From Nitrososphaera sp. (GTDB lineage: Archaea; Thermoproteota; Nitrososphaeria; Nitrososphaerales; Nitrosopumilaceae), in the NCBI GenBank assembly GCA_039938575.1, contig JBDUUJ010000079.1:10067-74066 (forward strand): a stretch of 64,000 nt of DNA, read 5' to 3'. Shown piece by piece: positions 6,306 through 45,099 of the stretch. A program made the translations under genes and the position numbers. Within the stretch, counting starts at the first letter, position 1. Each line of letters begins with the position of its first letter. Below the pieces are notes generated by a model. The model was given only the letters and a program-made list of their open reading frames with translations. It was not told the origin of the DNA and made no database searches.

Positions 6306-7256
6306 TTGAATCTTAAGATAACGGTTTGCATCTTCCTTGTTTTTGCCATCTCTTTTTCCTCGTTTGCAGTTTTTGCCAATACATTTCCCACGGGGTTAGA
6401 TTTTTCACAAAAGAATTTTTTTGCTAAAGAGTTTAGTGATAAGAAAAAGATCATTTTACTTGGTTCTAGCCACGTAGGACAATTGAATACAACTTACATT
6501 ACAAATTACCTAAATAAAAATGATATTGAAGTGTTTAACCTAGCTTATAATAGTGATACTCCTGAACGAAGAAGTCGCTTTCTTAATGAAATGATTGCAC
6601 TAAAACCAACTGTGGTAATATATGGAGTTTCATACAGAGATTTTCAAACCCCGTTTAATGAAAGTCCTCTTCCAGATCCAAAGTATTTTTTTAACAATTT
6701 ATCAAACGAACTAATGAAGAATGATATTACAACTAATCCAAAATTAATAACTCTAAATTTTATTAGAAATGTTCAGAACTCTTTTGTGGTGTTAAGGACG
6801 GAAGAGAAAATATTAACTTTTGATAACACACCATTTTTTTCATACAATATAGAAACACAGACACAAATAGCAAACGAAATTGAGTTGAAAAAACAGTCAC
6901 AAAGATCAGAAGCATCAAAGTTTAGTCTTGAAGCGCCAGATAAAAATAAACAAGCTGAGGCACTAATTAATTTGATTAATGAATTTGAACAAAACAATAT
7001 AAAAGTTGTATTGTTCCTTACACCACTGAATAAATATTATCTTGCGGAGATTCCTGATTCACAACACATAATTTTTAATTCCATAATTAACCATGTAATA
7101 AATGAAACAGGTGTATCGGTTTATGATTTAAGATACAAGTATAGCGAAATGCCAATCTGGGCAAACATTAGTCATGTTGCATTTAATAAGGATTCTTTGA
7201 TCTACAGTGAAGATATTGCAAAAATTATTGAAAAAGAGATCTTAGATGCTATTTAA
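6306..7256 (+). CDS. Secreted SGNH/GDSL-like (AlgJ/DltD-type) protein
   Basis: Signal peptide; block I LLGSSH, FNLAYNS, C-terminal 'WANISHVAFN'; overlaps the MBOAT start. Confidence 0.65.
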   Translation: MNLKITVCIFLVFAISFSSFAVFANTFPTGLDFSQKNFFAKEFSDKKKIILLGSSHVGQLNTTYITNYLNKNDIEVFNLAYNSDTPERRSRFLNEMIALKPTVVIYGVSYRDFQTPFNESPLPDPKYFFNNLSNELMKNDITTNPKLITLNFIRNVQNSFVVLRTEEKILTFDNTPFFSYNIETQTQIANEIELKKQSQRSEASKFSLEAPDKNKQAEALINLINEFEQNNIKVVLFLTPLNKYYLAEIPDSQHIIFNSIINHVINETGVSVYDLRYKYSEMPIWANISHVAFNKDSLIYSEDIAKIIEKEILDAI

Positions 7257-9058: not shown

Positions 9059-9574
9059 TCATGGTTTCATTCTATGACCCATTTGTGAGCCCATCTTGGT
9101 CTTGTTCTCCATCATTTGCTTCATTTGTTCTAGATGTTGAGGATCATCGATCATCATTTGGTGCATTTGCTGCATCATCTGTGGATCGGCCATCATTTGC
9201 TGCATCATTTGATGCATATGATCGGAATCACTCATCATCATTTGCATCATTTTTTCCATGTGTTGAGGGTTGTCTGCCATCATTTGGTGCATTTGCTCCA
9301 CATGATTAGGATCATTCATCATGATGTCATGCATCTGACTCATCAGTTGTGGATCGGCCATCATCTGGTTCATCCAGTCGTTCATAGTTTGTGGATTTTG
9401 TCTCCATTGAGCCATCATTTGTTGCCTGAAGCTCGGATCGTTCATCATGGCCTGCATTTGTTGCGGATTCATGTGTATGTTTGTTGACATTCCTTGGAAA
9501 ACTGAATATCCTATTCCTACTCCGGCAAAAAATACGCCCACTATAATTCCTATCCAGACAGCTTGTTTTGCCAT
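9059..9574 (-). CDS. Membrane-anchored Met/His/Gln-rich repeat protein
   Basis: N-terminal TM (AVWIGIIVGVFFAGVGIG) then ~7 imperfect 'MMxDPQxMxQMHQM' repeats; likely start ATG 9574. Confidence 0.85.
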   Translation of the reverse strand: MAKQAVWIGIIVGVFFAGVGIGYSVFQGMSTNIHMNPQQMQAMMNDPSFRQQMMAQWRQNPQTMNDWMNQMMADPQLMSQMHDIMMNDPNHVEQMHQMMADNPQHMEKMMQMMMSDSDHMHQMMQQMMADPQMMQQMHQMMIDDPQHLEQMKQMMENKTKMGSQMGHRMKP

Positions 9575-9701
9575 TGATTGTGTGGTGAATCTAATTGTAT
9601 ATACCACATGCAGTCAATTTTCAATTCTGATAAGCTGCCTAAATTCTCAAAGTTGAGATTTAACTTCATTCCATAAATACAATTTTTTCTCCTCTTATGC
9701 A

Positions 9702-16824: not shown

Positions 16825-17760
16825 ATGTATAATAGTATACTGAAAAATTTGGAAAAACACGCTAATAAAAAATTGGATGGTTGTAGAGAACACATTCTTG
16901 TCTGTGACGAAGAACATGGTGAAATGATTTGTGCAAGGTGCGGCTGCGTAGTTCAAGAAAAGATCGAAGATGAAGGACCTGAATGGCGTGCACTCGACTC
17001 GAAGATAAACAAGAGTAGAATTGGTGACGGCAGCTCGCTTACCAAACATGACATGGGCCTCTCAACTGTGATAGGTTCAGCAAACAAAGATGTCACTGGA
17101 AAGCCATTATCTGCAATTATGCGAAGCACTATTGAAAGACTCAGGATGTGGGATAGCAGAAGCCAGGCACATACTGCAGCTGATAGAAATCTCCGAAAGG
17201 CATTCTCTGAATTATCCGCACTAAAAGAAAAATTAGGATTAACTGAGGCTATTGCAGAAAAAACTGCTTACATCTACAGAAAGGCTCATGAAAAAAAACT
17301 TGTTCGTGGAAGACCCATATCGGCATTTATTTGTGCAGCCCTGTATGCTGCGTGTAGAGACAGCGAAACTCCACGTACAATAAAAGACATTCAAAAAGCA
17401 AGTGCTGTGAAATCAAAGCAGATCAACAAGTGTTACCGACAACTCGTAGAGGGCCTCGACATGAAAATGCCAGTAGTTGATCCAGTACAGTGTGTTTCAT
17501 TGATAGCAAACAAAGTAGGAGCATCAGAAAAAACAAAACGTCTTGCAGCTTCAATCTTTGTTGAATATGAAAAGACCGGTAATGCTTCCGGAAAGAGTCC
17601 GATGGCTGTTGCTGCAACCGCCGTATATTTGGCAGCAGTCAAGAACAACGAAAATTTTACACAACGGCAGGTAGCACGTGCTGCAAATATCACCGAAGTG
17701 ACAATTAGAAATAGGACACATTCGATGAGAAATAGTATCAAGTCTTTGAATACCCAGTAG
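16825..17760 (+). CDS. tfb: Transcription initiation factor IIB paralog
   Basis: Zn ribbon (DEEHGEMICARCG), GPEWR, cyclin repeats, TEVTIRNR. Confidence 0.96.
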   Translation: MYNSILKNLEKHANKKLDGCREHILVCDEEHGEMICARCGCVVQEKIEDEGPEWRALDSKINKSRIGDGSSLTKHDMGLSTVIGSANKDVTGKPLSAIMRSTIERLRMWDSRSQAHTAADRNLRKAFSELSALKEKLGLTEAIAEKTAYIYRKAHEKKLVRGRPISAFICAALYAACRDSETPRTIKDIQKASAVKSKQINKCYRQLVEGLDMKMPVVDPVQCVSLIANKVGASEKTKRLAASIFVEYEKTGNASGKSPMAVAATAVYLAAVKNNENFTQRQVARAANITEVTIRNRTHSMRNSIKSLNTQ

Positions 17761-17780: not shown

Positions 17781-18125
17781 TTAGAGTATATGCGTGCCAC
17801 TTTGTTTTGTTGCAATATCAAACGCTTCTTCTACATTTGAGACAAATATTTTACCGTCGCCGGCAGTTCCCGTGTGGGCCACGTTCATTATTGCCTTGAC
17901 GACTTTATCTACTTTGGAATCATCCACTATTGTCATTATTGATTCAAGTCTGTTGTACATGGCAACAAACTTTGCAGTGCCCCTTGATCCCCTCAGTATG
18001 GGCCTTTCTCCTGTTCCGATGCCTCTTGACTGTGTGATGGTGATGCCAGTTACGCCTATTTCTTTTAGCGCGTCAGTGACTACAGCTAGCTTGTCTTCCT
18101 GTATTATTGCGTCTATTTTTTTCAT
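17781..18125 (-). CDS. glnB: Nitrogen regulatory protein P-II
   Basis: MKKIDAII, GTAGDGKIFVS, T-loop with RGSRG. Confidence 0.92.
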   Translation of the reverse strand: MKKIDAIIQEDKLAVVTDALKEIGVTGITITQSRGIGTGERPILRGSRGTAKFVAMYNRLESIMTIVDDSKVDKVVKAIMNVAHTGTAGDGKIFVSNVEEAFDIATKQSGTHIL

Positions 18126-18812: not shown

Positions 18813-18977
18813 TCATGATCTTTTGAACAATTTCTTGACACTATGGATTGCTGTGTCTATTGGACACCATGTACAATATACATGGTGATTTTGTTTGTGT
18901 TTTTTGAGTTCATTTTCTGTGTTGAAGTTAATTTTGCATTCACCGCATACAAATCCAGAATCTTTTTGCGCAGTCAT
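18813..18977 (-). CDS. C2H2 zinc-finger micro-protein, 54 aa (not in ORF track)
   Basis: MTAQKDSGFVCGECKINFNTENELKKHKQNHHVYCTWCPID..; F-x-C-x2-C-x3-F-x5-L-x2-H-x3-H. Confidence 0.7.
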   Translation of the reverse strand: MTAQKDSGFVCGECKINFNTENELKKHKQNHHVYCTWCPIDTAIHSVKKLFKRS

Positions 18978-19125
18978 ACTTCAAGTTAGAACCACAGAAG
19001 CTAGATATAAACAGATTCTAAAATCGTTAAATTTTTTCTTGATTAATGATCAATCTTTTATGACTCCAATCTAATTATCATCATGAACCCTTTTTATTTT
19101 ACGATTTTAAAAAAGGTGGTGTCCC

Positions 19126-20364
19126 TTACTGGAAGGGATCTATGAATGGACAGTTAACAATGTGATCTTTATCCATCGGTCTTGCTAGGTTGACATCAAT
19201 CAGTCCTGCTTTTTTGTATGTGTTGATGTCATCTATAGTTTCAAGTACTGACGCAGATGACGGATCTTTCCAGCCGATCATGAAGATTCTCCACATCGGA
19301 CTGTAGTTTGGATCGCCTGGAGCGCCTACTGCAATCCCAGGCTGGAATCCCATTGGGCCAGTTCCTTTGATTCCATTCATGAACTGGAACAGATCGACTG
19401 CGGCCGAGTTTGCAATTAGCTTTGCCGACATTGGCGAGTTTGCAACACCCATCATTGTCGCAGGCATTTCAGGAGTAGCGTCAGTTACGATATAGTAGAC
19501 CGTTCTTCCATCTGGACCCCATCCTCTGTGTGCTACAAAGGTAACTGTCATTTTTTTGGTATCAATATCAAGAACTTGACCTCCTCCGTATTCAGTGCTG
19601 TCTGTGAGTGTTTTGTCTGCACGTATTTGGAGCTGACCTCCAGGCCACATAATTTGCGGCATGTTAATTACGGCCGGCAGCTCGGCAAGAGTCACCAAGC
19701 CTTCTTTCTGCGCCGCAAGTATGTCATCTTCTGATTTAAGCAGTTTTGCTTGTGCAGCATTATTCCACGTGACGTGAATGTGCGATGTCAATGCACTGTA
19801 CACTGTGGATTGTGCAGGAGTGCTAGTAAAGACCTCGCCTTGGAATCCATGTATGCCATCGCCTTTGATGCCATTGGTAAAGATGTATGTTTTTGATAGT
19901 GCGCTTTTTGGTGCATTTGCAAGAAGTGGTGCAAGCTCTACTTTCCATCCTTGTTGTTTGGTTATTATGTCTGCATGGGTTTGGTCGCTAGAGTCGGTTA
20001 TTATAAAGTAGACTGTTTCGCCATTATACCAACCCTTATGAAGTGGAATCGTTGCAGGAACATTAGCGCGTGACAGTCGTAACTTCATTTCGTCTTGAAC
20101 TTCGCTTGTTTGTTGTTGGGATTGTTTTGATTTTGCAGTAGATTGTTTGTTTATCGGTAATGGTTGGCTTGCATCTCTGGCCTCAGAACATAATCTGTCG
20201 CCACAAATTTTGTTTGCTGTCTTTGAACCATACTGATCTGTTCCAAGTCTTCCCGGCGCTTTGTTTCCCATGCTTTTAGCTGCGTCTGCTTCCACTGGAA
20301 GGTTAACTAATGCTAGGGTAATTAGCGGCAACATCAACAACAACGCCAAATATTTTGCATTCAT
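19126..20364 (-). CDS. Secreted protein with two internal repeat domains (DUF7482-like)
   Basis: Signal peptide; repeats 'HKGWYNGETVYFIITDSS..YSAL' and 'HRGWGPDGRTVYYIVTDAT..YSPM'. Confidence 0.75.
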   Translation of the reverse strand: MNAKYLALLLMLPLITLALVNLPVEADAAKSMGNKAPGRLGTDQYGSKTANKICGDRLCSEARDASQPLPINKQSTAKSKQSQQQTSEVQDEMKLRLSRANVPATIPLHKGWYNGETVYFIITDSSDQTHADIITKQQGWKVELAPLLANAPKSALSKTYIFTNGIKGDGIHGFQGEVFTSTPAQSTVYSALTSHIHVTWNNAAQAKLLKSEDDILAAQKEGLVTLAELPAVINMPQIMWPGGQLQIRADKTLTDSTEYGGGQVLDIDTKKMTVTFVAHRGWGPDGRTVYYIVTDATPEMPATMMGVANSPMSAKLIANSAAVDLFQFMNGIKGTGPMGFQPGIAVGAPGDPNYSPMWRIFMIGWKDPSSASVLETIDDINTYKKAGLIDVNLARPMDKDHIVNCPFIDPFQ

Positions 20365-20832
20365 TAGAAAACGATTGACGTTGCTTGTTTAAATGATTTT
20401 TTCCAGATCTGGGCAAATCTTTTTTTGTTGTCGAAAGATATTGTGTGCGATTCGATTCACGACTCTAGACATAAGCTCCCAGTTGTAAATCGGATCAACA
20501 ATTTTAAATTGTTAAAGAAATTTGTCAACTGTTTAATTTTTTCTTGATTGAATTTGTATGGTTTGGAAAAATCTTTTTATAAAAATCTTTTTGATGTCAT
20601 TGTTGACACGCAAATCAAAGAAACAAACATTGTTTAATGATAATTATCAGACCCTAGAATACATTAATCTCATATTGTGTCCCACGACATTTACAATGTG
20701 AATTATGAAACGCACAGATTGTAGATGTTTAACTACAGAATGTAGAGTAATCAAGTCACTTTTTGGTTGCTGCAATTGTACAGTGTTATTGCTGGTACGA
20801 AATCAATTTGTCTTAACACATAAATTAAATCG

Positions 20833-21486
20833 TTATTTTGTAGAGATGAGCATTTTTCCAAGTGTGTTAAGAGTTATCTTTGAACGTCCTCTTTCGAGCC
20901 GTTCAACATCTACTAGTCCCAGATGCACCAGCCCTTTTCCTTCCTCGTTGCCATGAATATGGTAGCTTAGGAGTGGCTTTCCAAAACCGGTTAATTTTGT
21001 GAGTTCTTCAAGACTCTCAGTTGTTCCACCTGCCTTGTCTAGAGCCTGTAGGATCTTGATTTTTGCTTCAGAGATTATTTCATTGTAGCTAAGCTTCAGT
21101 ATTGGTAGAAGCATCGGTCTTCCTTCTTCGTCTGTTCCAAATGCCTTGATCCCGTTTACAAAGGCGCACGATAGGGCGGCACAACCAATCATTTTGTCAC
21201 CTGCACTCACATTTATGAGCACTTGTTCAAAATTTCCTGCTTCTTTTTTTATGATGTCTGCAACATGTTCCATGGCGCTTCTTATGATGTCTGGTTTGGC
21301 TATCATCCTCAATGATACTGGCACTCCCAACGTAGTCTTAATGTTACGTGCAAACTCGTCAACTTCCTTGCTGTCATCCTCGTAATGAAGCAAGATTAGT
21401 TTGTGTATTGGAAAATTTCGAATTCCTGTGAGAATTCCTTCCCTGTCTTGTCCAAATGTAGCAATCTGCAGAGTTTGTTGAACCAT
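20833..21486 (-). CDS. CARF-like (Csa3/HFX_2341-type) domain + wHTH transcriptional regulator
   Basis: Rossmann-like N-terminus (IATFG, LILLH, LINVSAGDKMIGCAAL) and C-terminal 'SLEELTKLTGFGKPLLSYHI..LVDVERLERGRSKITLNTLG'. Confidence 0.8.
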   Translation of the reverse strand: MVQQTLQIATFGQDREGILTGIRNFPIHKLILLHYEDDSKEVDEFARNIKTTLGVPVSLRMIAKPDIIRSAMEHVADIIKKEAGNFEQVLINVSAGDKMIGCAALSCAFVNGIKAFGTDEEGRPMLLPILKLSYNEIISEAKIKILQALDKAGGTTESLEELTKLTGFGKPLLSYHIHGNEEGKGLVHLGLVDVERLERGRSKITLNTLGKMLISTK

Positions 21487-21522
21487 GTGTTCTGTAGCAG
21501 CGCACTATACTAAAGTGTTAAT

Positions 21523-21535
21523 TTGAACGATTCAA
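21523..21535. promoter_or_regulatory. Palindromic box TTGAA-N3-TTCAA
   Basis: TTGAACGATTCAA in the regulator/dsbA divergent region. Confidence 0.6.
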
Positions 21536-21628
21536 TTTTTACTTGAATTAAAGTAATTCGTGAATTGTTTTACAAAATCTTTAGAAATTTGGAAGAAATT
21601 TTTTATGTAATAAAAATCCGATGTTTGC

Positions 21629-22291
21629 GTGAAAAAACCGATCGTTGGAGTCATAGCAGCTGCCATAATCATCTCAATAGGTGTAGTTTATTCTAGCAAT
21701 CAGATAAATTTCAATCCTTCAGAATCCAACACCCAAAAAACATACCGTGCTATTGATACCACGTTAGGATCACCACTCTTTGGTTCAAGTACTGCTCCAG
21801 TCACAATCATAGAGTTTGGCGATTATCAGTGTCCGCAGTGTGATAAATGGTTCAAAACAGTTAGGCCGGACATTGAAGAACAATACATCAATTCAGGAAA
21901 GGCCAACCTTTACTTTGTTGACCTTGCATTTTTTGGGCCAGATTCCACAAAAGCAGCTGAGGCAACATATTGTGCGGCAGATCAAGGAAAATATTGGGAA
22001 TTTCACAACATATTGTACTCTAATCAAAAAGGAATCAATGATGGCTGGGCAAGTTCTGATAACCTCAAATCATTTGCATCTCAATTGAGTCTGGACAGAA
22101 CTCTCTTTGATAGTTGTCTTGATTCTGATAAATACAAGAAAAGAGTTGAGAAAAATGTACTGGAAGCAAAAAGAAATGGAGTCAGCAGCACTCCAACGTT
22201 CATCATAATCGGGCCAGATGGTTCACAGAAAATCGTTGAAGGTGCACAACCATTTTCAGTGTTCAAGCAGACTATAGATTCGATGATATGA
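21629..22291 (+). CDS. DsbA-family thioredoxin-fold protein, membrane anchored
   Basis: EFGDYQCPQC, cis-Pro STPTF, GAQPF. Confidence 0.93.
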   Translation: MKKPIVGVIAAAIIISIGVVYSSNQINFNPSESNTQKTYRAIDTTLGSPLFGSSTAPVTIIEFGDYQCPQCDKWFKTVRPDIEEQYINSGKANLYFVDLAFFGPDSTKAAEATYCAADQGKYWEFHNILYSNQKGINDGWASSDNLKSFASQLSLDRTLFDSCLDSDKYKKRVEKNVLEAKRNGVSSTPTFIIIGPDGSQKIVEGAQPFSVFKQTIDSMI

Positions 22292-22773
22292 TCAAAGCTG
22301 CACTTAAACTAGTCTACTCAGATCGTAGGTACATCGTAATTTCTGCAATAATTAGCATTGTGTTTTTTGTTCCACTTGCCATACTTGCAGAATACATCTT
22401 TACAACCCCATATCTTGTGCTGCATGTTACTTTTGATAATTTGCTTGGATTTGCACTGATTCTGATTGTATCAGCGATGTCGGGACTTGTAATTGGCATG
22501 AACGTGTACCGGATAAGACTGCTCCAACAGAGCCGAGCAAAAATGGGCGGAGGTTTACTAGGATCCATAATTGGTGCTTCCGCAGGTGCGTGTAGTTGTG
22601 GATCAGTGGGTTTTGCGGTAATCTCCACATTTGGAACTGTTGGCGGAATCGCAACGGCCTTTCTTTCAAATTATGAAATCCCACTCAGACTATTGGCAAT
22701 TGCAATACTTGGGTATACCTATTTCGCTACAACCAAGTCATTAATAGTAGAGTGTAAAATTAAAAAATCTTGA
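22288..22773 (+). CDS. 4-TM membrane protein with intramembrane C-S-C motif
   Basis: GACSCGSVG within hydrophobic segments; ATGA overlap with dsbA. Confidence 0.75.
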   Translation: MIKAALKLVYSDRRYIVISAIISIVFFVPLAILAEYIFTTPYLVLHVTFDNLLGFALILIVSAMSGLVIGMNVYRIRLLQQSRAKMGGGLLGSIIGASAGACSCGSVGFAVISTFGTVGGIATAFLSNYEIPLRLLAIAILGYTYFATTKSLIVECKIKKS

Positions 22774-22783
22774 ATTGTTCAAG
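22769..22783. promoter_or_regulatory. Palindromic box CTTGAA-TTG-TTCAAG
   Basis: 41 bp before TTTAATA (22811), upstream of the DUF3179 gene. Confidence 0.65.
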
Positions 22784-22833
22784 AAAAAATTTCAAGAATT
22801 GGAACAAGTCTTTAATATTTTCAAAGCGAATTT

Positions 22834-23949
22834 TTGGCGTTGAATCTCAAGTACACAATTGCGACTGTTGGTGGAGGAACAATCGTTGCATGGTTGGTTT
22901 TAGCTCTGTACATACCTCCAATGTTGCACTCATTAGAAGAAACTCGGCTTAGCAGTCAGATTGTTACAGATGTCAACTCGGAGCAGATACAGATTACAAA
23001 TGGCATCAGACATCTAGTGCCACTCGATGACATCAAAAGTGGCGGCCCTCCAAAAGATGGTATACCGTCAATCGATAACCCAGAATTTATCAATGCACAA
23101 GATGCCCAGTTTCTATCTGATGATGAGATTATCATAGGCCTGAACATCAATGGCGAAACAAAAGCTTATCCCTTAATCATTTTGGTTTGGCATGAAATAG
23201 TAAACGACAGAGTCGGGGATCTTCCAGTGGCTGTAACATACTGTCCCCTATGCTTTACAACACAAGTTTTTGAAAGGGTGATCGATGGTAAAGAAACAGA
23301 ATTTGGAACCTCTGGTAAGTTATACAACAGTAATTTGGTGATGTATGACAGAAACACTGATTCTATGTGGAGTCAAGCACTCGGAAAGGCAATAGTTGGT
23401 GAATTGACCGGTTTTGAGCTGAAACGAGTTCCATTTGATTTAGCGCGATGGTCTGACTGGAAAAAGCTTCATCCAGATACGTTGGTGCTTTCAACCCATA
23501 CTGGCTTTTCAAGGCCGTATGGCACTGATCCTTATGGTGATTATTATACAGATTCCAGAGTCATCTTTCCTGTAAAAAATGCCGATGATAGAATGCATCC
23601 AAAGGAGATAATTGTGGGCTTTGAAAACGAAAACTCTTACAAGGCATACAAACTCTCGGATATAGAATCACAAAAAATAGTAAATGATGTAATTAACGAA
23701 CAAAATCTCGTACTTGTATCAATTGCACCATTTAACGTAAGAGCATATGATGGTATGGTCGACGGCCAAGTCTTGGAGTTCACATTAGAAAGCCAGAAGA
23801 TTAAAGATGTGCAAACATCTTCAGAATGGAACTTTGATGGCCTTGCAATTTCAGGACCATTGAAGGGGAAACAGTTGAACAGATTACCGTTAAGTCCAGG
23901 ATTTTGGTTCGAATGGTTTGCATTTCATCCTGAAACCGAGGTCTACTAG
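22834..23949 (+). CDS. DUF3179-family protein
   Basis: GGPPKDGIPSID, WHEIVND, YCPLC, FGTSGKLYNSNLVMYDRNT, WFEWFAFHPET. Confidence 0.9.
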   Translation: MALNLKYTIATVGGGTIVAWLVLALYIPPMLHSLEETRLSSQIVTDVNSEQIQITNGIRHLVPLDDIKSGGPPKDGIPSIDNPEFINAQDAQFLSDDEIIIGLNINGETKAYPLIILVWHEIVNDRVGDLPVAVTYCPLCFTTQVFERVIDGKETEFGTSGKLYNSNLVMYDRNTDSMWSQALGKAIVGELTGFELKRVPFDLARWSDWKKLHPDTLVLSTHTGFSRPYGTDPYGDYYTDSRVIFPVKNADDRMHPKEIIVGFENENSYKAYKLSDIESQKIVNDVINEQNLVLVSIAPFNVRAYDGMVDGQVLEFTLESQKIKDVQTSSEWNFDGLAISGPLKGKQLNRLPLSPGFWFEWFAFHPETEVY

Positions 23950-23952
23950 TCA

Positions 23953-24435
23953 TTGAGATCGTTGATCAAAGCGATCTTATTTGGAAGTGTTACCATTTTG
24001 ACATATCTTTTGGTGGTGATAGTCACAACGCCTGCCCTCGATCCAGTAAGTGCAGTTTCGGCTGCCATCCAGCTAAATTCACCCATCATATTTGGAATGG
24101 GCCTGGGAGTAGGACTGCAGTTATTTCTATCCGACCAGTCCAAAAAATTTGGGTGTAGTATTGCTAAAAGAAGAGTGACGGGAGGTAATTCTGGCACTAC
24201 GGCGCTTACATCATTTTTTTCTTTTTTTTCACTTGTGCCTCTTGGCTGTTGCAGTTGGTGGCTGTATGTGATTTCGTTTTTGCCAAGCGTATTTGGTGTT
24301 GGTGTGTCTGCCAGTTTGATAAATTATAGTCAACCGTTATCTTATGTTGGACTAACCATCATTTTTGGGTACAACTTGACGATATTTTATAAAATCAAAC
24401 AGAAGCAAAGACAGACAAAACAATTGAAAACTTGA
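23953..24435 (+). CDS. Membrane protein with intramembrane CC motif
   Basis: 4 TM; PLGCCSWW; MerT/MerC-like Cys placement. Confidence 0.7.
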   Translation: MRSLIKAILFGSVTILTYLLVVIVTTPALDPVSAVSAAIQLNSPIIFGMGLGVGLQLFLSDQSKKFGCSIAKRRVTGGNSGTTALTSFFSFFSLVPLGCCSWWLYVISFLPSVFGVGVSASLINYSQPLSYVGLTIIFGYNLTIFYKIKQKQRQTKQLKT

Positions 24436-24609
24436 ACAGCCGGTAGGAGACATGCATTATGTGAACCGGCTGGCCAAGCTTTGGGTCGTCAGAGGCGTTA
24501 CAGTACGCTGTTTTTGATAGCCTTGAAACTATGCCAATCTTTGATATTAAAAAACAATATCTGCAATTTCCCAAGTTATTTTTTAACAGTTAAATCCCAG
24601 TTACGACTT

Positions 24610-24623
24610 TTGAATTGTTCAAG
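24610..24623. promoter_or_regulatory. Palindromic box TTGAA-TTG-TTCAAG
   Basis: 14 bp identical to 22770-22783; 41 bp before TTATAGA (24651). Confidence 0.65.
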
Positions 24624-24681
24624 TTGAATTTGAATTATTTCAGATCAAACTTATAGACTTTGAAAAGATTATGTCTCTTCA

Positions 24682-25932
24682 ATGAAACCACAAAAAATAA
24701 TGTTGTTTGCATTGGCTGCAGTTTCTTTGATGTTGTTGCCATTGCTTGTATGGTTTCCAGAACACGACGACCATTTAGCGTTGGCACAAAAGACACCAGC
24801 CACTAAAAACGAGCCACTTTCAGATGCTTCCAATAACGTTCAGGTCGATTTTGAGGTACCAAGTACAGTCTACGTCAACGAGCTGACTACACTCAAAATG
24901 AGAATAACTGATAAAGAATCCGGGGCACCGCTTTCCCACGTAGATTGGGCAATAGCTGTAAAGGATCCTTTTGGCAATGTCGTCTACAAGACCACAACTG
25001 CACATTCACACGCAGGACAAATGGACATCAATGTAGCGTTTCCAATAGCAGGAACAAACATCGTGTCTCTTACAGCTTCTTCAATAGGATTCAAAATGAT
25101 GGGCATGGATGTGCCAGCAATGGCGCGTACGCACACAGTTCTTTCAGGGGATATCATGGGAGGATGGAAGACAGATCCCGACAATAACTTTGGTACAAGA
25201 ACATATGAGTTTCCAGTGACAGTTCTGAGTGAAAAACAACTCAATACGATCAAGAGCTCAGAGGGCAACATGCTCAACTTTGAGATGGCAATAAATGCAG
25301 ACCAAATAGTTGCTGGACAGCCAGTAACTTTGGTATTTACTTTGACCAACGCCGATGATGGTTCCATGATAACACACCCAGACATGCAATTAAAGGTAAG
25401 AACCGGTAGTTTGGTGATATCGCAATCTGCCCCAGTCGATGGAATGATGGGAATGAACGGCATATACCATGGCCATACCGGTGTGTACACACTAACGACT
25501 ACATTTCCAAGGCCTGGCCTCTATCTCCTAAATGCGGATCTGAATTCGCTGCCGGTTTCAAACGTGCAGTTTGGACAGGCAAGCACTAGATTCGTGTTAC
25601 AGGTAGCAGATTCTACCAGCCCATCAGAGGTTGTTTCAACCCAGTCTACACCCGGTTTAAACACTGTCAACATAGTTGGAATCGAGTCGCCGTTCTTTGA
25701 GCCGAATTCGATAAATGTCAAAGCAGGAACGACTCTCACATTTGCCAATGTTGATGGCAACATACACACGGTTACCTCCGTAAAGAGCGGAACGATAGAA
25801 CCTGATGGTAGCTTTGACAGCGGATTAATGAAAGCAGGAGACACATTTACAGTAAAACTTGACAAGCCCGGTACATACGAGTATGTCTGTGTAATTCACA
25901 CAGGAATGAAAGGAACTGTGAATGTATCCTGA
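24682..25932 (+). CDS. Secreted multidomain protein with C-terminal type-1 blue-copper (plastocyanin/azurin) domain
   Basis: C-terminal H(TVTS)..C-x2-H-x2-M; two N-terminal Ig-like domains with His/Met patches (AHSHAG, MMGMNGIYHGH). Confidence 0.88.
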   Translation: MKPQKIMLFALAAVSLMLLPLLVWFPEHDDHLALAQKTPATKNEPLSDASNNVQVDFEVPSTVYVNELTTLKMRITDKESGAPLSHVDWAIAVKDPFGNVVYKTTTAHSHAGQMDINVAFPIAGTNIVSLTASSIGFKMMGMDVPAMARTHTVLSGDIMGGWKTDPDNNFGTRTYEFPVTVLSEKQLNTIKSSEGNMLNFEMAINADQIVAGQPVTLVFTLTNADDGSMITHPDMQLKVRTGSLVISQSAPVDGMMGMNGIYHGHTGVYTLTTTFPRPGLYLLNADLNSLPVSNVQFGQASTRFVLQVADSTSPSEVVSTQSTPGLNTVNIVGIESPFFEPNSINVKAGTTLTFANVDGNIHTVTSVKSGTIEPDGSFDSGLMKAGDTFTVKLDKPGTYEYVCVIHTGMKGTVNVS

Positions 25933-44346: not shown

Positions 44347-45099
44347 TTGAACTCAATGAAACACAAACAAAACACATCCTGCGATGCGACCAAAATCAAG
44401 ATACTTGCATTGGTTGTTGCAGCCTCGCTGCTCTTTAGTATGACTGCAGTGCAGGTTGCCCATGCTGACCACACTAAAGAAAAAAAACAGATCAAAAAAG
44501 AATCCAAAGACAAAAAGATTAATGAAAAAAAGATAAAAAAAGAAATCAAAAAGCCAAGTCAGAAAAAACCTGTTGTTATCACAGAGACAAGAACATCTGC
44601 AAACACTATCGAATCACAACTAAAAGCTTGCAAAGAAAAACAAACAGAGCGTGAGCAGTACGAATGTGAAAAACAAATCAAAACACAACAAGAGCTTGAA
44701 ACATTCAAACAAAAATCAACAAAATACCAAGTAGGGCCGATTACTTTCTATTATGCAGGTGCAAAGGTTGAAAAAAGCGGCGGAAAAGACATTGTAAACC
44801 TCAGATTCCTGGTGGAAAACACCGGCTCAAAGGACAACGTGACGTTGTACTGCACAGGCCCTGCAGTGTGTAATTATGATGTATCCGACGGTAAGACCAT
44901 CTACAAGTACTCATCACAGGACTTTACCAACGGTCAAGTTGTGCTAAAGCCAGGACAGTCAAGATACATCAACATGTTGTTTGGTCCTGCTATAGGTTAT
45001 GGAAGCTACGTTGATTTCAAGTTTGACCCAACAAAACAGTACACATTCAATATAAGGGAGCCATGGGGCTCTGCCAGCATACCACTCAACCTACAGTGA
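44347..45099 (+). CDS. Secreted protein, Lys-rich linker + C-terminal beta-sandwich
   Basis: Signal peptide (VQVAHA); C-x12-C pair; C-terminal Ig-like domain. Confidence 0.7.
   Translation: MNSMKHKQNTSCDATKIKILALVVAASLLFSMTAVQVAHADHTKEKKQIKKESKDKKINEKKIKKEIKKPSQKKPVVITETRTSANTIESQLKACKEKQTEREQYECEKQIKTQQELETFKQKSTKYQVGPITFYYAGAKVEKSGGKDIVNLRFLVENTGSKDNVTLYCTGPAVCNYDVSDGKTIYKYSSQDFTNGQVVLKPGQSRYINMLFGPAIGYGSYVDFKFDPTKQYTFNIREPWGSASIPLNLQ

Follow-up and report, generated by a model that had tools for sequence, protein, structure and literature searches.

A conserved palindrome, probable operator of a Csa3-like regulator, at promoters of exported thiol and copper protein genes in ammonia-oxidizing archaea

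Csa3a and Csa3b of the Sulfolobales belong to type I-A CRISPR-Cas systems and carry a CARF signature in which strand 1 ends in S/T and strand 4 is followed by [DN]x[ST]xxx[RK] (PMC4012209). The binding site of Sulfolobus Csa3a, which activates transcription, is an imperfect palindrome located immediately upstream of the TFB-recognition element (BRE) and TATA box (PMC5587795). HFX_2341 of Haloferax mediterranei is the founding member of the Pfam family PF19810 (DUF6293). It is a CRISPR-unlinked, vertically inherited, Csa3a-like global regulator with reported effects, mostly repression, on transport and metabolism genes and on cas genes (PMC11434293). Here, a regulator of the same Pfam family (REG) and a 13-bp palindrome found at its promoter and at neighboring promoters are described from a 64,000-nucleotide stretch of Nitrososphaera sp. 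contig JBDUUJ010000079.1 (assembly GCA_039938575.1), the whole of which is referred to as the window. We consider it probable that the palindrome serves as the operator in a regulon that is conserved among ammonia-oxidizing archaea (AOA), most likely bound by the adjacent Csa3-like REG as a homodimer.

An exhaustive scan of the window found four perfect copies of TTGAANNNTTCAA against 0.42 expected, a count reached in 1 of 100 shuffled windows. Three copies are intergenic and lie inside 3.1 kb, as TTGAACGATTCAA at 21523–21535 and as TTGAATTGTTCAA at both 22770–22782 and 24610–24622. These positions, the 14 bp common to the copies at 22770 and 24610 (TTGAATTGTTCAAG), and a degenerate copy at 21560–21572 (GTGAATTGTTTTA) had been given in the original prediction and were verified. 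That prediction had seen no fourth perfect copy; one is present at 44696–44708 (TTGAAACATTCAA), away from any promoter and inside open reading frame (ORF) 44347–45099, whose product is Lys-rich with a hydrophobic stretch at its N-terminus. With one mismatch, 14 copies were seen and 9.4 expected, without overall enrichment, so that what stands out is the clustering of perfect copies in intergenic DNA.

Orthologous promoters were compared across 80 loci, obtained by scanning one genome per GTDB species with the REG profile. The loci came from Nitrosotenuis, Nitrosotalea, other Nitrosopumilaceae, and Nitrososphaerales, with REG protein identities from 98% to 51%. About 16 kb around each regulator was covered, and gene starts were set by a simple ORF rule. 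Seventy-two REG promoters were aligned on the TATA-like box and start codon, not on the motif. In nearly all of them, over the full identity range, 8 nt separate the operator from the TATA-like box downstream of it; where the inferred REG start could be placed well, the operator begins 49–50 nt before it. About 70 orthologous loci have a site at this position, and those of Nitrosopumilales have, almost without exception, a perfect or one-mismatch copy there. The order of elements is a half-site (ATTCAAG/GTTAAAG), about 13 nt, TTGAAC-N-GTTCAA, 8 nt with a BRE-like nTyAATAC, the TATA-like box (TTTAGTA in Nitrosopumilales, CTTATTA in Nitrososphaerales), about 21 nt, and the start codon. Nitrososphaerales promoters have a right half that has drifted to GTTRRAG but keep the inner AAC-N-GTT and the 8-nt gap. 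The motif, first proposed as TTGAA-N3-TTCAA, is a palindrome as stated; because its inner AAC-N-GTT is kept even where the right half drifts, it is better written TTGAAC-N-GTTCAA (TTKAAY-N-RTTMAA, from orthologous REG promoters).

In the window, the REG operator (21523–21535) occupies positions −49 to −37 from the REG ATG. It ends 8 nt upstream of a TATA-like box, TTTAGTA (21508–21514, minus strand; −28 from the ATG); either this sequence or CTTATTA recurs there in nearly all orthologous promoters, and the REG mRNA would be leaderless. An extra half-site, TTGAAT (ATTCAA toward REG), is found at 21543–21548, 20 bp upstream of the operator, and ATTCAAG/GTTAAAG is conserved at that offset. The fixed position of an operator in the regulator's own promoter implies autoregulation. 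This reading of the 21523 copy, made in the original prediction, is strongly supported by phylogenetic footprinting in dozens of genomes, as is the sharing of the operator with effector promoters. Both autoregulation and a shared operator can thus be called well supported as readings of the genome sequences. The Nitrosotalea-like metagenome-assembled genome REEA14 has three REG paralogues (L021, L023, and L080), each with the operator 49–50 nt before its start codon, which suggests cross-regulation among the paralogues.

At the effector promoters, sites starting 41 bp before a TATA-like string had been proposed in three cases, and all three were verified (21560 to TTTTAT at 21601, 22770 to TTTAATA at 22811, and 24610 to TTATAGA at 24651). 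The consensus of 47 target promoters is TTGAACnGTTCAA-gaaaAAaTT-N5-ATTTGGAAaAA-ttc-TTTTAnA, with the TATA box at +41 from the site start. An alignment of nine DUF3179 promoters (A2) contains no indels between operator and TATA box, with conserved blocks at the operator, the A-tract, GATyTGGAMMAA, TCTTTAATATTTT, and GTTGAAT in the start region. The fixed spacing is strongly supported by both data sets, and the constant TATA position across target promoters makes the 41-bp rule a conserved property of the regulon. Sites start 67–73 nt before the start codon in 41 of 104 non-REG site–gene pairs, including those of DsbA, DUF3179, cupredoxin, DUF7482, thioredoxin, DoxX, and the Met-rich membrane protein; a minor mode lies at 49 nt.

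The individual promoters of the window differ in site quality. At dsbA, the degenerate GTGAATTGTTTTA (21560–21572) lies 69 nt before the GTG start and 41 bp before the TATA-like box of dsbA-TM1 (21601–21608, plus strand), and this spacing is conserved. The site scores poorly alone; orthologous positions hold better sites in loci L003 (TTGAAATGTTCAA), L005, L006, and L032 (ATGAACGGTTCAA in the last two), all at 69 nt, and the sites of L003, L006, and L032 are each 37 bp from the regulator-proximal site. At DUF3179, TTGAATTGTTCAA (22770–22782) overlaps the stop codon of TM1, 70 nt before a conserved TTG at 22840, and the TATA box of the DUF3179-TM2 operon, TTTAATAT (22811–22818, plus strand), is invariant in A2. 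The cupredoxin gene has TTGAATTGTTCAA (24610–24622) 72 nt before its ATG, against 72 nt in L001 and 70 nt in L030. Its TATA-like box (24651–24657, plus strand) is conserved as cTTATAGA in L001, L004, and L030. A second, upstream cupredoxin operator, TTTAACAGTTAAA, is located at 24582–24594 and has the counterpart TTTAACAGTTGAA in L001. Upstream of DUF7482, TTTAACAATTTAA (20504–20516, read toward the gene) starts 152 nt before the ATG and 41 bp before CTTATGTC, a TATA-like sequence at 20475; this gene keeps the 41-bp rule from a distal promoter, and L001 is arranged likewise. A weaker tandem site, TTAAACAGTTGAC (20524–20536), with a matrix score of 5.5, is 20 bp further upstream. A small zinc-finger gene has a degenerate operator at 19019–19031, TTTAACGATTTTA when read on the minus strand, with 8 nt between it and the TATA box TTATATCT. 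Its orthologues in Nitrosotalea-like and related loci have a near-perfect TTGAACnGTTCAA starting 49 nt before the ATG.

A position weight matrix (PWM) was built from 26 Nitrosopumilales REG-promoter sites only, with the window left out, and was then run over the window. The top four matches were 22770 (19.9, DUF3179 promoter), 24610 (19.2, cupredoxin promoter), 21523 (17.0, REG promoter), and 24582 (14.9, second site of the cupredoxin promoter). Sites in coding DNA at 6526 and 44696 scored 13.3 and 13.1, and 20504 upstream of DUF7482 scored 11.9; the maximum in shuffled windows had a mean of 13.0 and a 95th percentile of 16.5. The perfect copy at 44696 was rejected as a further operator on its location inside an ORF and its score within the shuffled range, and is probably a chance occurrence. 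Across 27 Nitrosopumilales loci, 26 of which also gave training sites, intergenic DNA (66.7 kb) contained 100 matches scoring at least 11 and coding DNA (300 kb) contained 9, a density about 50-fold greater in intergenic DNA. The families downstream of intergenic matches are REG, DUF7482, DsbA, DUF3179, cupredoxin, the Met-rich membrane protein, DoxX, thioredoxin, TM1, an EgtB-like protein (DinB_2 plus FGE-sulfatase), a radical-SAM enzyme, and the small zinc-finger protein. The regulon includes the promoters first proposed and is larger than proposed, with the additional window sites 24582, 20504, 20524, and 19019 and more families in relatives.

These data bear on an alternative in which the copies arose by chance or belong to a structural or mobile repeat, such as an RNA hairpin, a terminator, or a remnant of a miniature inverted-repeat transposable element, with no role in transcription initiation. 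The sequence is short and AT-rich, a perfect copy occurs in coding DNA at 44696, and the copy at 22770, where it overlaps the stop codon, could form a 7-bp hairpin of −5.2 kcal/mol. The remaining hairpins are negligible (−0.7 to −2.5 kcal/mol), no longer repeat surrounds the sites apart from related promoter modules, and spacing to the TATA box and start codon is fixed across about 50% protein divergence. Together with the intergenic density of matches, this makes such an origin very improbable. An RNA element or terminator was rejected, as hairpins are weak and no Rfam match was obtained at E ≤ 1 except a meaningless one of 16 bits. A metagenome-wide search with the pattern TTGAACNGTTCAA-N14-17-TTGGAA, intended to extend the regulon, was not used; the matches listed were almost only chance ones on unrelated contigs, often high-GC or from gut, that lacked the promoter architecture.

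Two promoter classes were distinguished by operator position, and the single 41-bp geometry of the original prediction holds for the effector promoters only. Class I comprises REG and the zinc-finger gene; here the operator abuts the BRE, with 8 nt between its end and the TATA box downstream, a placement that would match that of the Csa3a site if REG binds there. In class II (effector genes), 28 nt separate the operator end from the TATA box, an A-tract follows the operator, and the start codon lies about 70 nt after the site start; class II mRNAs are apparently leaderless. Class II members are dsbA-TM1, DUF3179-TM2, cupredoxin, and DUF7482, and in relatives thioredoxin, DoxX, the Met-rich membrane protein, the EgtB-like protein, and the radical-SAM enzyme. 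In Nitrosotalea-like loci, one palindrome between divergent promoters is 8 nt from the TATA box on one side and 28 nt on the other, class I toward the zinc-finger gene and class II toward the Met-rich membrane protein. Operators are upstream of the BRE/TATA wherever a TATA-like box could be assigned, and none overlaps the TATA box or transcription start site (TSS), both of which were assigned from sequence. In location they thus agree with archaeal upstream activator sites of the Ptr2, TFB-RF1, or SurR-activating type.

A further box, ATTTGGAA, is conserved in class II promoters; it lies beside the BRE, 21 bp downstream of the operator and 6–7 nt before the TATA box. In the 47 aligned target promoters, it appears as the consensus ATTTGGAAaAA at +27 to +37 from the site start. 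In the window, it is TTTGGAA at the dsbA promoter (21588–21594, plus strand), which lies 21 bp from the main operator and may represent a weak half-site, and ATTGGAA at the DUF3179 promoter (22798–22804, plus strand), within the block GATyTGGAMMAA of A2. The box resembles the GTTGGAG right half-site of Nitrososphaerales. Nitrososphaerales TM2 promoters have a full second site at the box position (for example TTTAATTCTTCAA, 7 nt, CTTTAACTGTTGGAG, 8 nt, TAAATAG). On this likeness and this full second site, the box is read as a weak proximal half-site, two helical turns away. A general promoter or BRE feature was rejected, as the box is absent from other window promoters. A mark of the transcription factor B (TFB) paralogue encoded at 16825–17760 was also rejected, since the TFB gene is linked in only one close relative.

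REG (20833–21486, minus strand; 217 aa) scores 42.3 bits against PF19810 (HFX_2341_N; cut-off 30) over residues 7–116, placing it in that family, and PF19810 is carried by all but one partial sequence among the 120 close REG homologues listed. An AlphaFold2 model built from a 25-sequence alignment has a mean pLDDT (predicted local distance difference test) of 77. Its best Foldseek matches are the Csa3 structures 6wxq, 2wte, and 6w11, over the full length (225–230 columns; E values 1.9e-9 to 7e-9), and other CARF proteins rank after Csa3. Searches of PDB sequences with the REG protein and with its profile gave nothing significant, and the likeness to Csa3 comes from fold comparison only. The model predicts an N-terminal CARF-type domain and, at the C-terminus, a winged helix-turn-helix (wHTH), as in Csa3. 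The CARF pocket signature is intact: T10 ends strand 5–10, and N92-V-S94-A-G-D-K98 follows strand 88–92. T10, N92, S94, and K98 are invariant in 25 REG sequences; Cys102 is invariant too. Csa3-type factors are marked by binding of cyclic tetra-adenylate in this pocket, and REG has the pocket signature, which by itself does not specify a ligand.

REG resembles Csa3a and Csa3b in predicted two-domain fold and in the signature after strand 4, but sequence identity is only about 19%. The targets also differ, being exported thiol and copper proteins for REG and cas or DNA-repair genes for Csa3, and the operator sequence and two-tier promoter architecture are specific to the REG family. No cas genes were seen among the annotated neighbors of REG in the roughly 16 kb covered per locus, and a scan of the window for direct repeats of at least 22 nt found no multi-copy family. 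Rather than a Csa3-type CRISPR-Cas association, the neighbors are DUF7482, DUF3179, DsbA, and housekeeping genes. HFX_2341, at 308 aa, is larger than REG, and for REG, unlike HFX_2341, an operator and compact regulon can be read from genomes.

A different protein may recognize the palindrome, either the small C2H2 zinc-finger protein or an unlinked factor, with the DUF6293 gene as a regulon member only. The link between REG and the operator is drawn from genome sequence, and the zinc-finger gene has an operator in REG-like geometry, both in the window and in Nitrosotalea-like and related loci. That gene was found by tblastn only in the window and 12 Nitrosopumilales-type loci, whereas the REG-proximal site is present in nearly all 72 REG promoters, those of Nitrososphaerales included. 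Across both orders, no regulator but REG is linked to the targets, and the modeled structure of REG has the dimeric wHTH architecture expected for a 13-bp palindrome. A binder other than REG is accordingly judged unlikely.

The direction of control by REG at the effector promoters is less clear. Activation is favored because every site lies upstream of the BRE/TATA, although we place it slightly short of an even chance; repression is given a smaller but substantial chance, and mixed effects are the least probable of the three. The "activator" role proposed originally is positional, and the upstream sites and the A-tract after the operator would fit it. In a repressor scheme, REG would bind tightly beside the BRE of its own promoter and so regulate itself negatively, and at effector promoters it would spread cooperatively from the strong distal site to the weak ATTTGGAA half-site, blocking TFB and TATA-binding protein (TBP) until released by a CARF ligand. 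Negative autoregulation is the commonest arrangement for prokaryotic transcription factors. The proximal box is 6–7 nt from the TATA box, where the BRE is expected. Deletion of HFX_2341 mostly raises expression and its over-expression represses cas genes (PMC11434293), and Csa3b is reported to be a repressor (PMC5389559). However, archaeal repressors usually bind over or downstream of the TATA box or TSS, where none of the sites lies, and the strong sites at effector promoters end 28 nt short of the TATA box. Csa3a, which matches REG most closely in structure, acts as an activator, and its site is immediately upstream of the promoter (PMC5587795). A purely repressing REG is a real possibility that we hold to be somewhat improbable.

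Two further systems were compared with the REG operator. SurR of the Thermococcales is a palindrome-binding, autoregulated wHTH protein that controls a redox/sulfur regulon, with an effect that depends on site position relative to the BRE/TATA. It has two wHTH domains and a CxxC switch; REG, by contrast, is a CARF-wHTH protein of unrelated architecture. The operator core is AAC-N-GTT inside TTGAACnGTTCAA, with a half-site order and spacing other than those of the SurR motif GTTn3AAC. In Nitrososphaera viennensis, a copper-limitation motif, TTCSGSMTTTGWACYANT, occurs 35–70 nt before start codons of copper-related genes (PMC7785015). Like the operator, it is a shared upstream motif in an AOA and contains TTGWAC; unlike the operator, it has a right half (YANT) and a 5′ extension that are at odds with the palindrome. 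Identity of the two was rejected, as the 80 loci and the window contain 40 scattered matches to TTCSGSMTTTGWACYANT with up to three mismatches, none at any operator position.

Several observations weigh against an operator bound by REG. The dsbA, DUF7482, and zinc-finger sites of the window are degenerate; 20504 scores within the shuffled range, and 20524, 19019, and 21560 score lower still. The TATA boxes and leaderless mRNAs were assigned from sequence and spacing alone, and none of the RNA runs searched contains the window sequence. REG was named as the binder from autoregulatory placement and linkage only. HFX_2341, the only characterized family member, acts mostly as a repressor and has no known binding site or direct targets (PMC11434293).

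The window comes from a Nitrosotenuis-like AOA: the best protein matches are 88–95% identical and labeled Candidatus Nitrosotenuis. Its sequence is present only in hot-spring and microbial-mat DNA metagenomes. The C2H2 zinc-finger protein (18813–18977, minus strand; 54 aa), with its operator in regulator-like promoter geometry, is homologous to cluster 8, of which the L009 orthologue has a weak Pfam zf-C2H2_6 match (24.2 bits against a 25-bit cut-off). The exported DUF7482 protein (19126–20364, minus strand; Pfam DUF7482, 2.8e-107) is encoded by the gene whose linkage to REG is the most consistent and is seen in both AOA orders. DUF3179, TM2, DsbA, and TM1 are also linked to REG in both orders, with order and orientation rearranged. 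The dsbA gene (21629–22291, plus strand; GTG start) encodes a DsbA-like thioredoxin with a CPQC motif (Pfam Thioredoxin_4, 1.5e-31; DSBA, 2.8e-14). It is overlapped by TM1 (22288–22773, plus strand), a Cys-motif membrane protein gene without a Pfam match, and the two probably form one operon (21629–22773). The DUF3179 gene (22834–23949, plus strand; Pfam DUF3179, 2.5e-111) encodes a protein with a CPLC motif. Its true start is likely the TTG at 22840, given the GTTGAAT start block conserved in A2. DUF3179 is a known selenoprotein/thiol-oxidoreductase-type family. TM2 (23953–24435, plus strand) encodes a second Cys-motif membrane protein, with a CC motif. The gene at 24682–25932 (plus strand) encodes an exported protein with a C-terminal plastocyanin/azurin-type copper domain (Pfam Copper-bind, 2.5e-11; Cupredoxin_1, 2.4e-7).

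TM1 and TM2 are about 160 aa each, contain CSCGS and GCCSWW motifs, and match no Pfam family. TM1 is directly 3′ of DsbA and TM2 directly 3′ of DUF3179, both exported CxxC proteins, with which they are probably co-translated. They are candidate DsbB/VKOR-like redox partners. Paralogy of TM1 and TM2 was rejected, as no BLASTP similarity was found between them. Two JGI contigs with an identical regulator protein (L201 and L202) differ by the presence or absence of a five-gene cassette (L202:9103–13435) of cupredoxin, TM2, DUF3179, TM1, and DsbA that separates the regulator from DUF7482, which suggests that all five genes come and go together within a single population. Bordering the regulon are a TFB (TFIIB-like) paralogue (16825–17760, plus strand) and a PII-like protein (17781–18125, minus strand), both named from their sequences. 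They are linked to the cluster only in the close relative L003 and are thus probably unrelated to the operator. Elsewhere in the window, a direct-repeat family at 9102–9374 lies inside a minus-strand ORF (9059–9607), with start-to-start spacings of 42 nt and 84 nt and 105-nt copies 60–76% identical to the reference copy.

In the proposed mechanism, a REG homodimer would bind the 13-bp palindrome and control its own promoter through the class I operator. At effector promoters, the strong distal and weak BRE-adjacent positions, two helical turns apart, would be occupied cooperatively, and this occupancy would help or hinder recruitment of TFB and TBP. The CARF pocket may sense a small ligand, probably one resembling a nucleotide. 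That the targets are exported CxxC, thiol, and copper proteins points to a thiol/copper or oxidative-stress response and suggests that the regulon answers thiol, oxidative, or copper stress. More tentatively, and in our view rather doubtfully, a CRISPR-free CARF factor may serve as a core regulator in all AOA, linking a small-molecule (possibly nucleotide) messenger or a redox/copper cue sensed by Cys102 to an exported thiol/copper regulon via the two-tier promoter code.

AOA rely strongly on copper enzymes and are sensitive to oxidative stress. To our knowledge, they are without genetic tools, and almost nothing is known of the binding sites of their transcription factors; literature searches returned no description of this operator or regulon in AOA. 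The palindrome appears to be a conventional autoregulated operator, but of a CRISPR-independent CARF regulator family with an unusual two-tier promoter code. A precise cis-element is now available, together with a candidate regulator present in essentially every AOA genome examined, and the resulting regulon ties mostly uncharacterized exported proteins (DUF3179, DUF7482, two Cys-motif membrane proteins, and one Met-rich membrane protein) to DsbA, thioredoxin, and cupredoxin. Use of a CARF/Csa3-like sensor domain outside CRISPR immunity raises the question of which ligand is read. If the proposal holds, this would be the first defined operator for the DUF6293 family, and a CRISPR-free CARF core regulator would represent a new signaling pathway in organisms that drive global nitrification.

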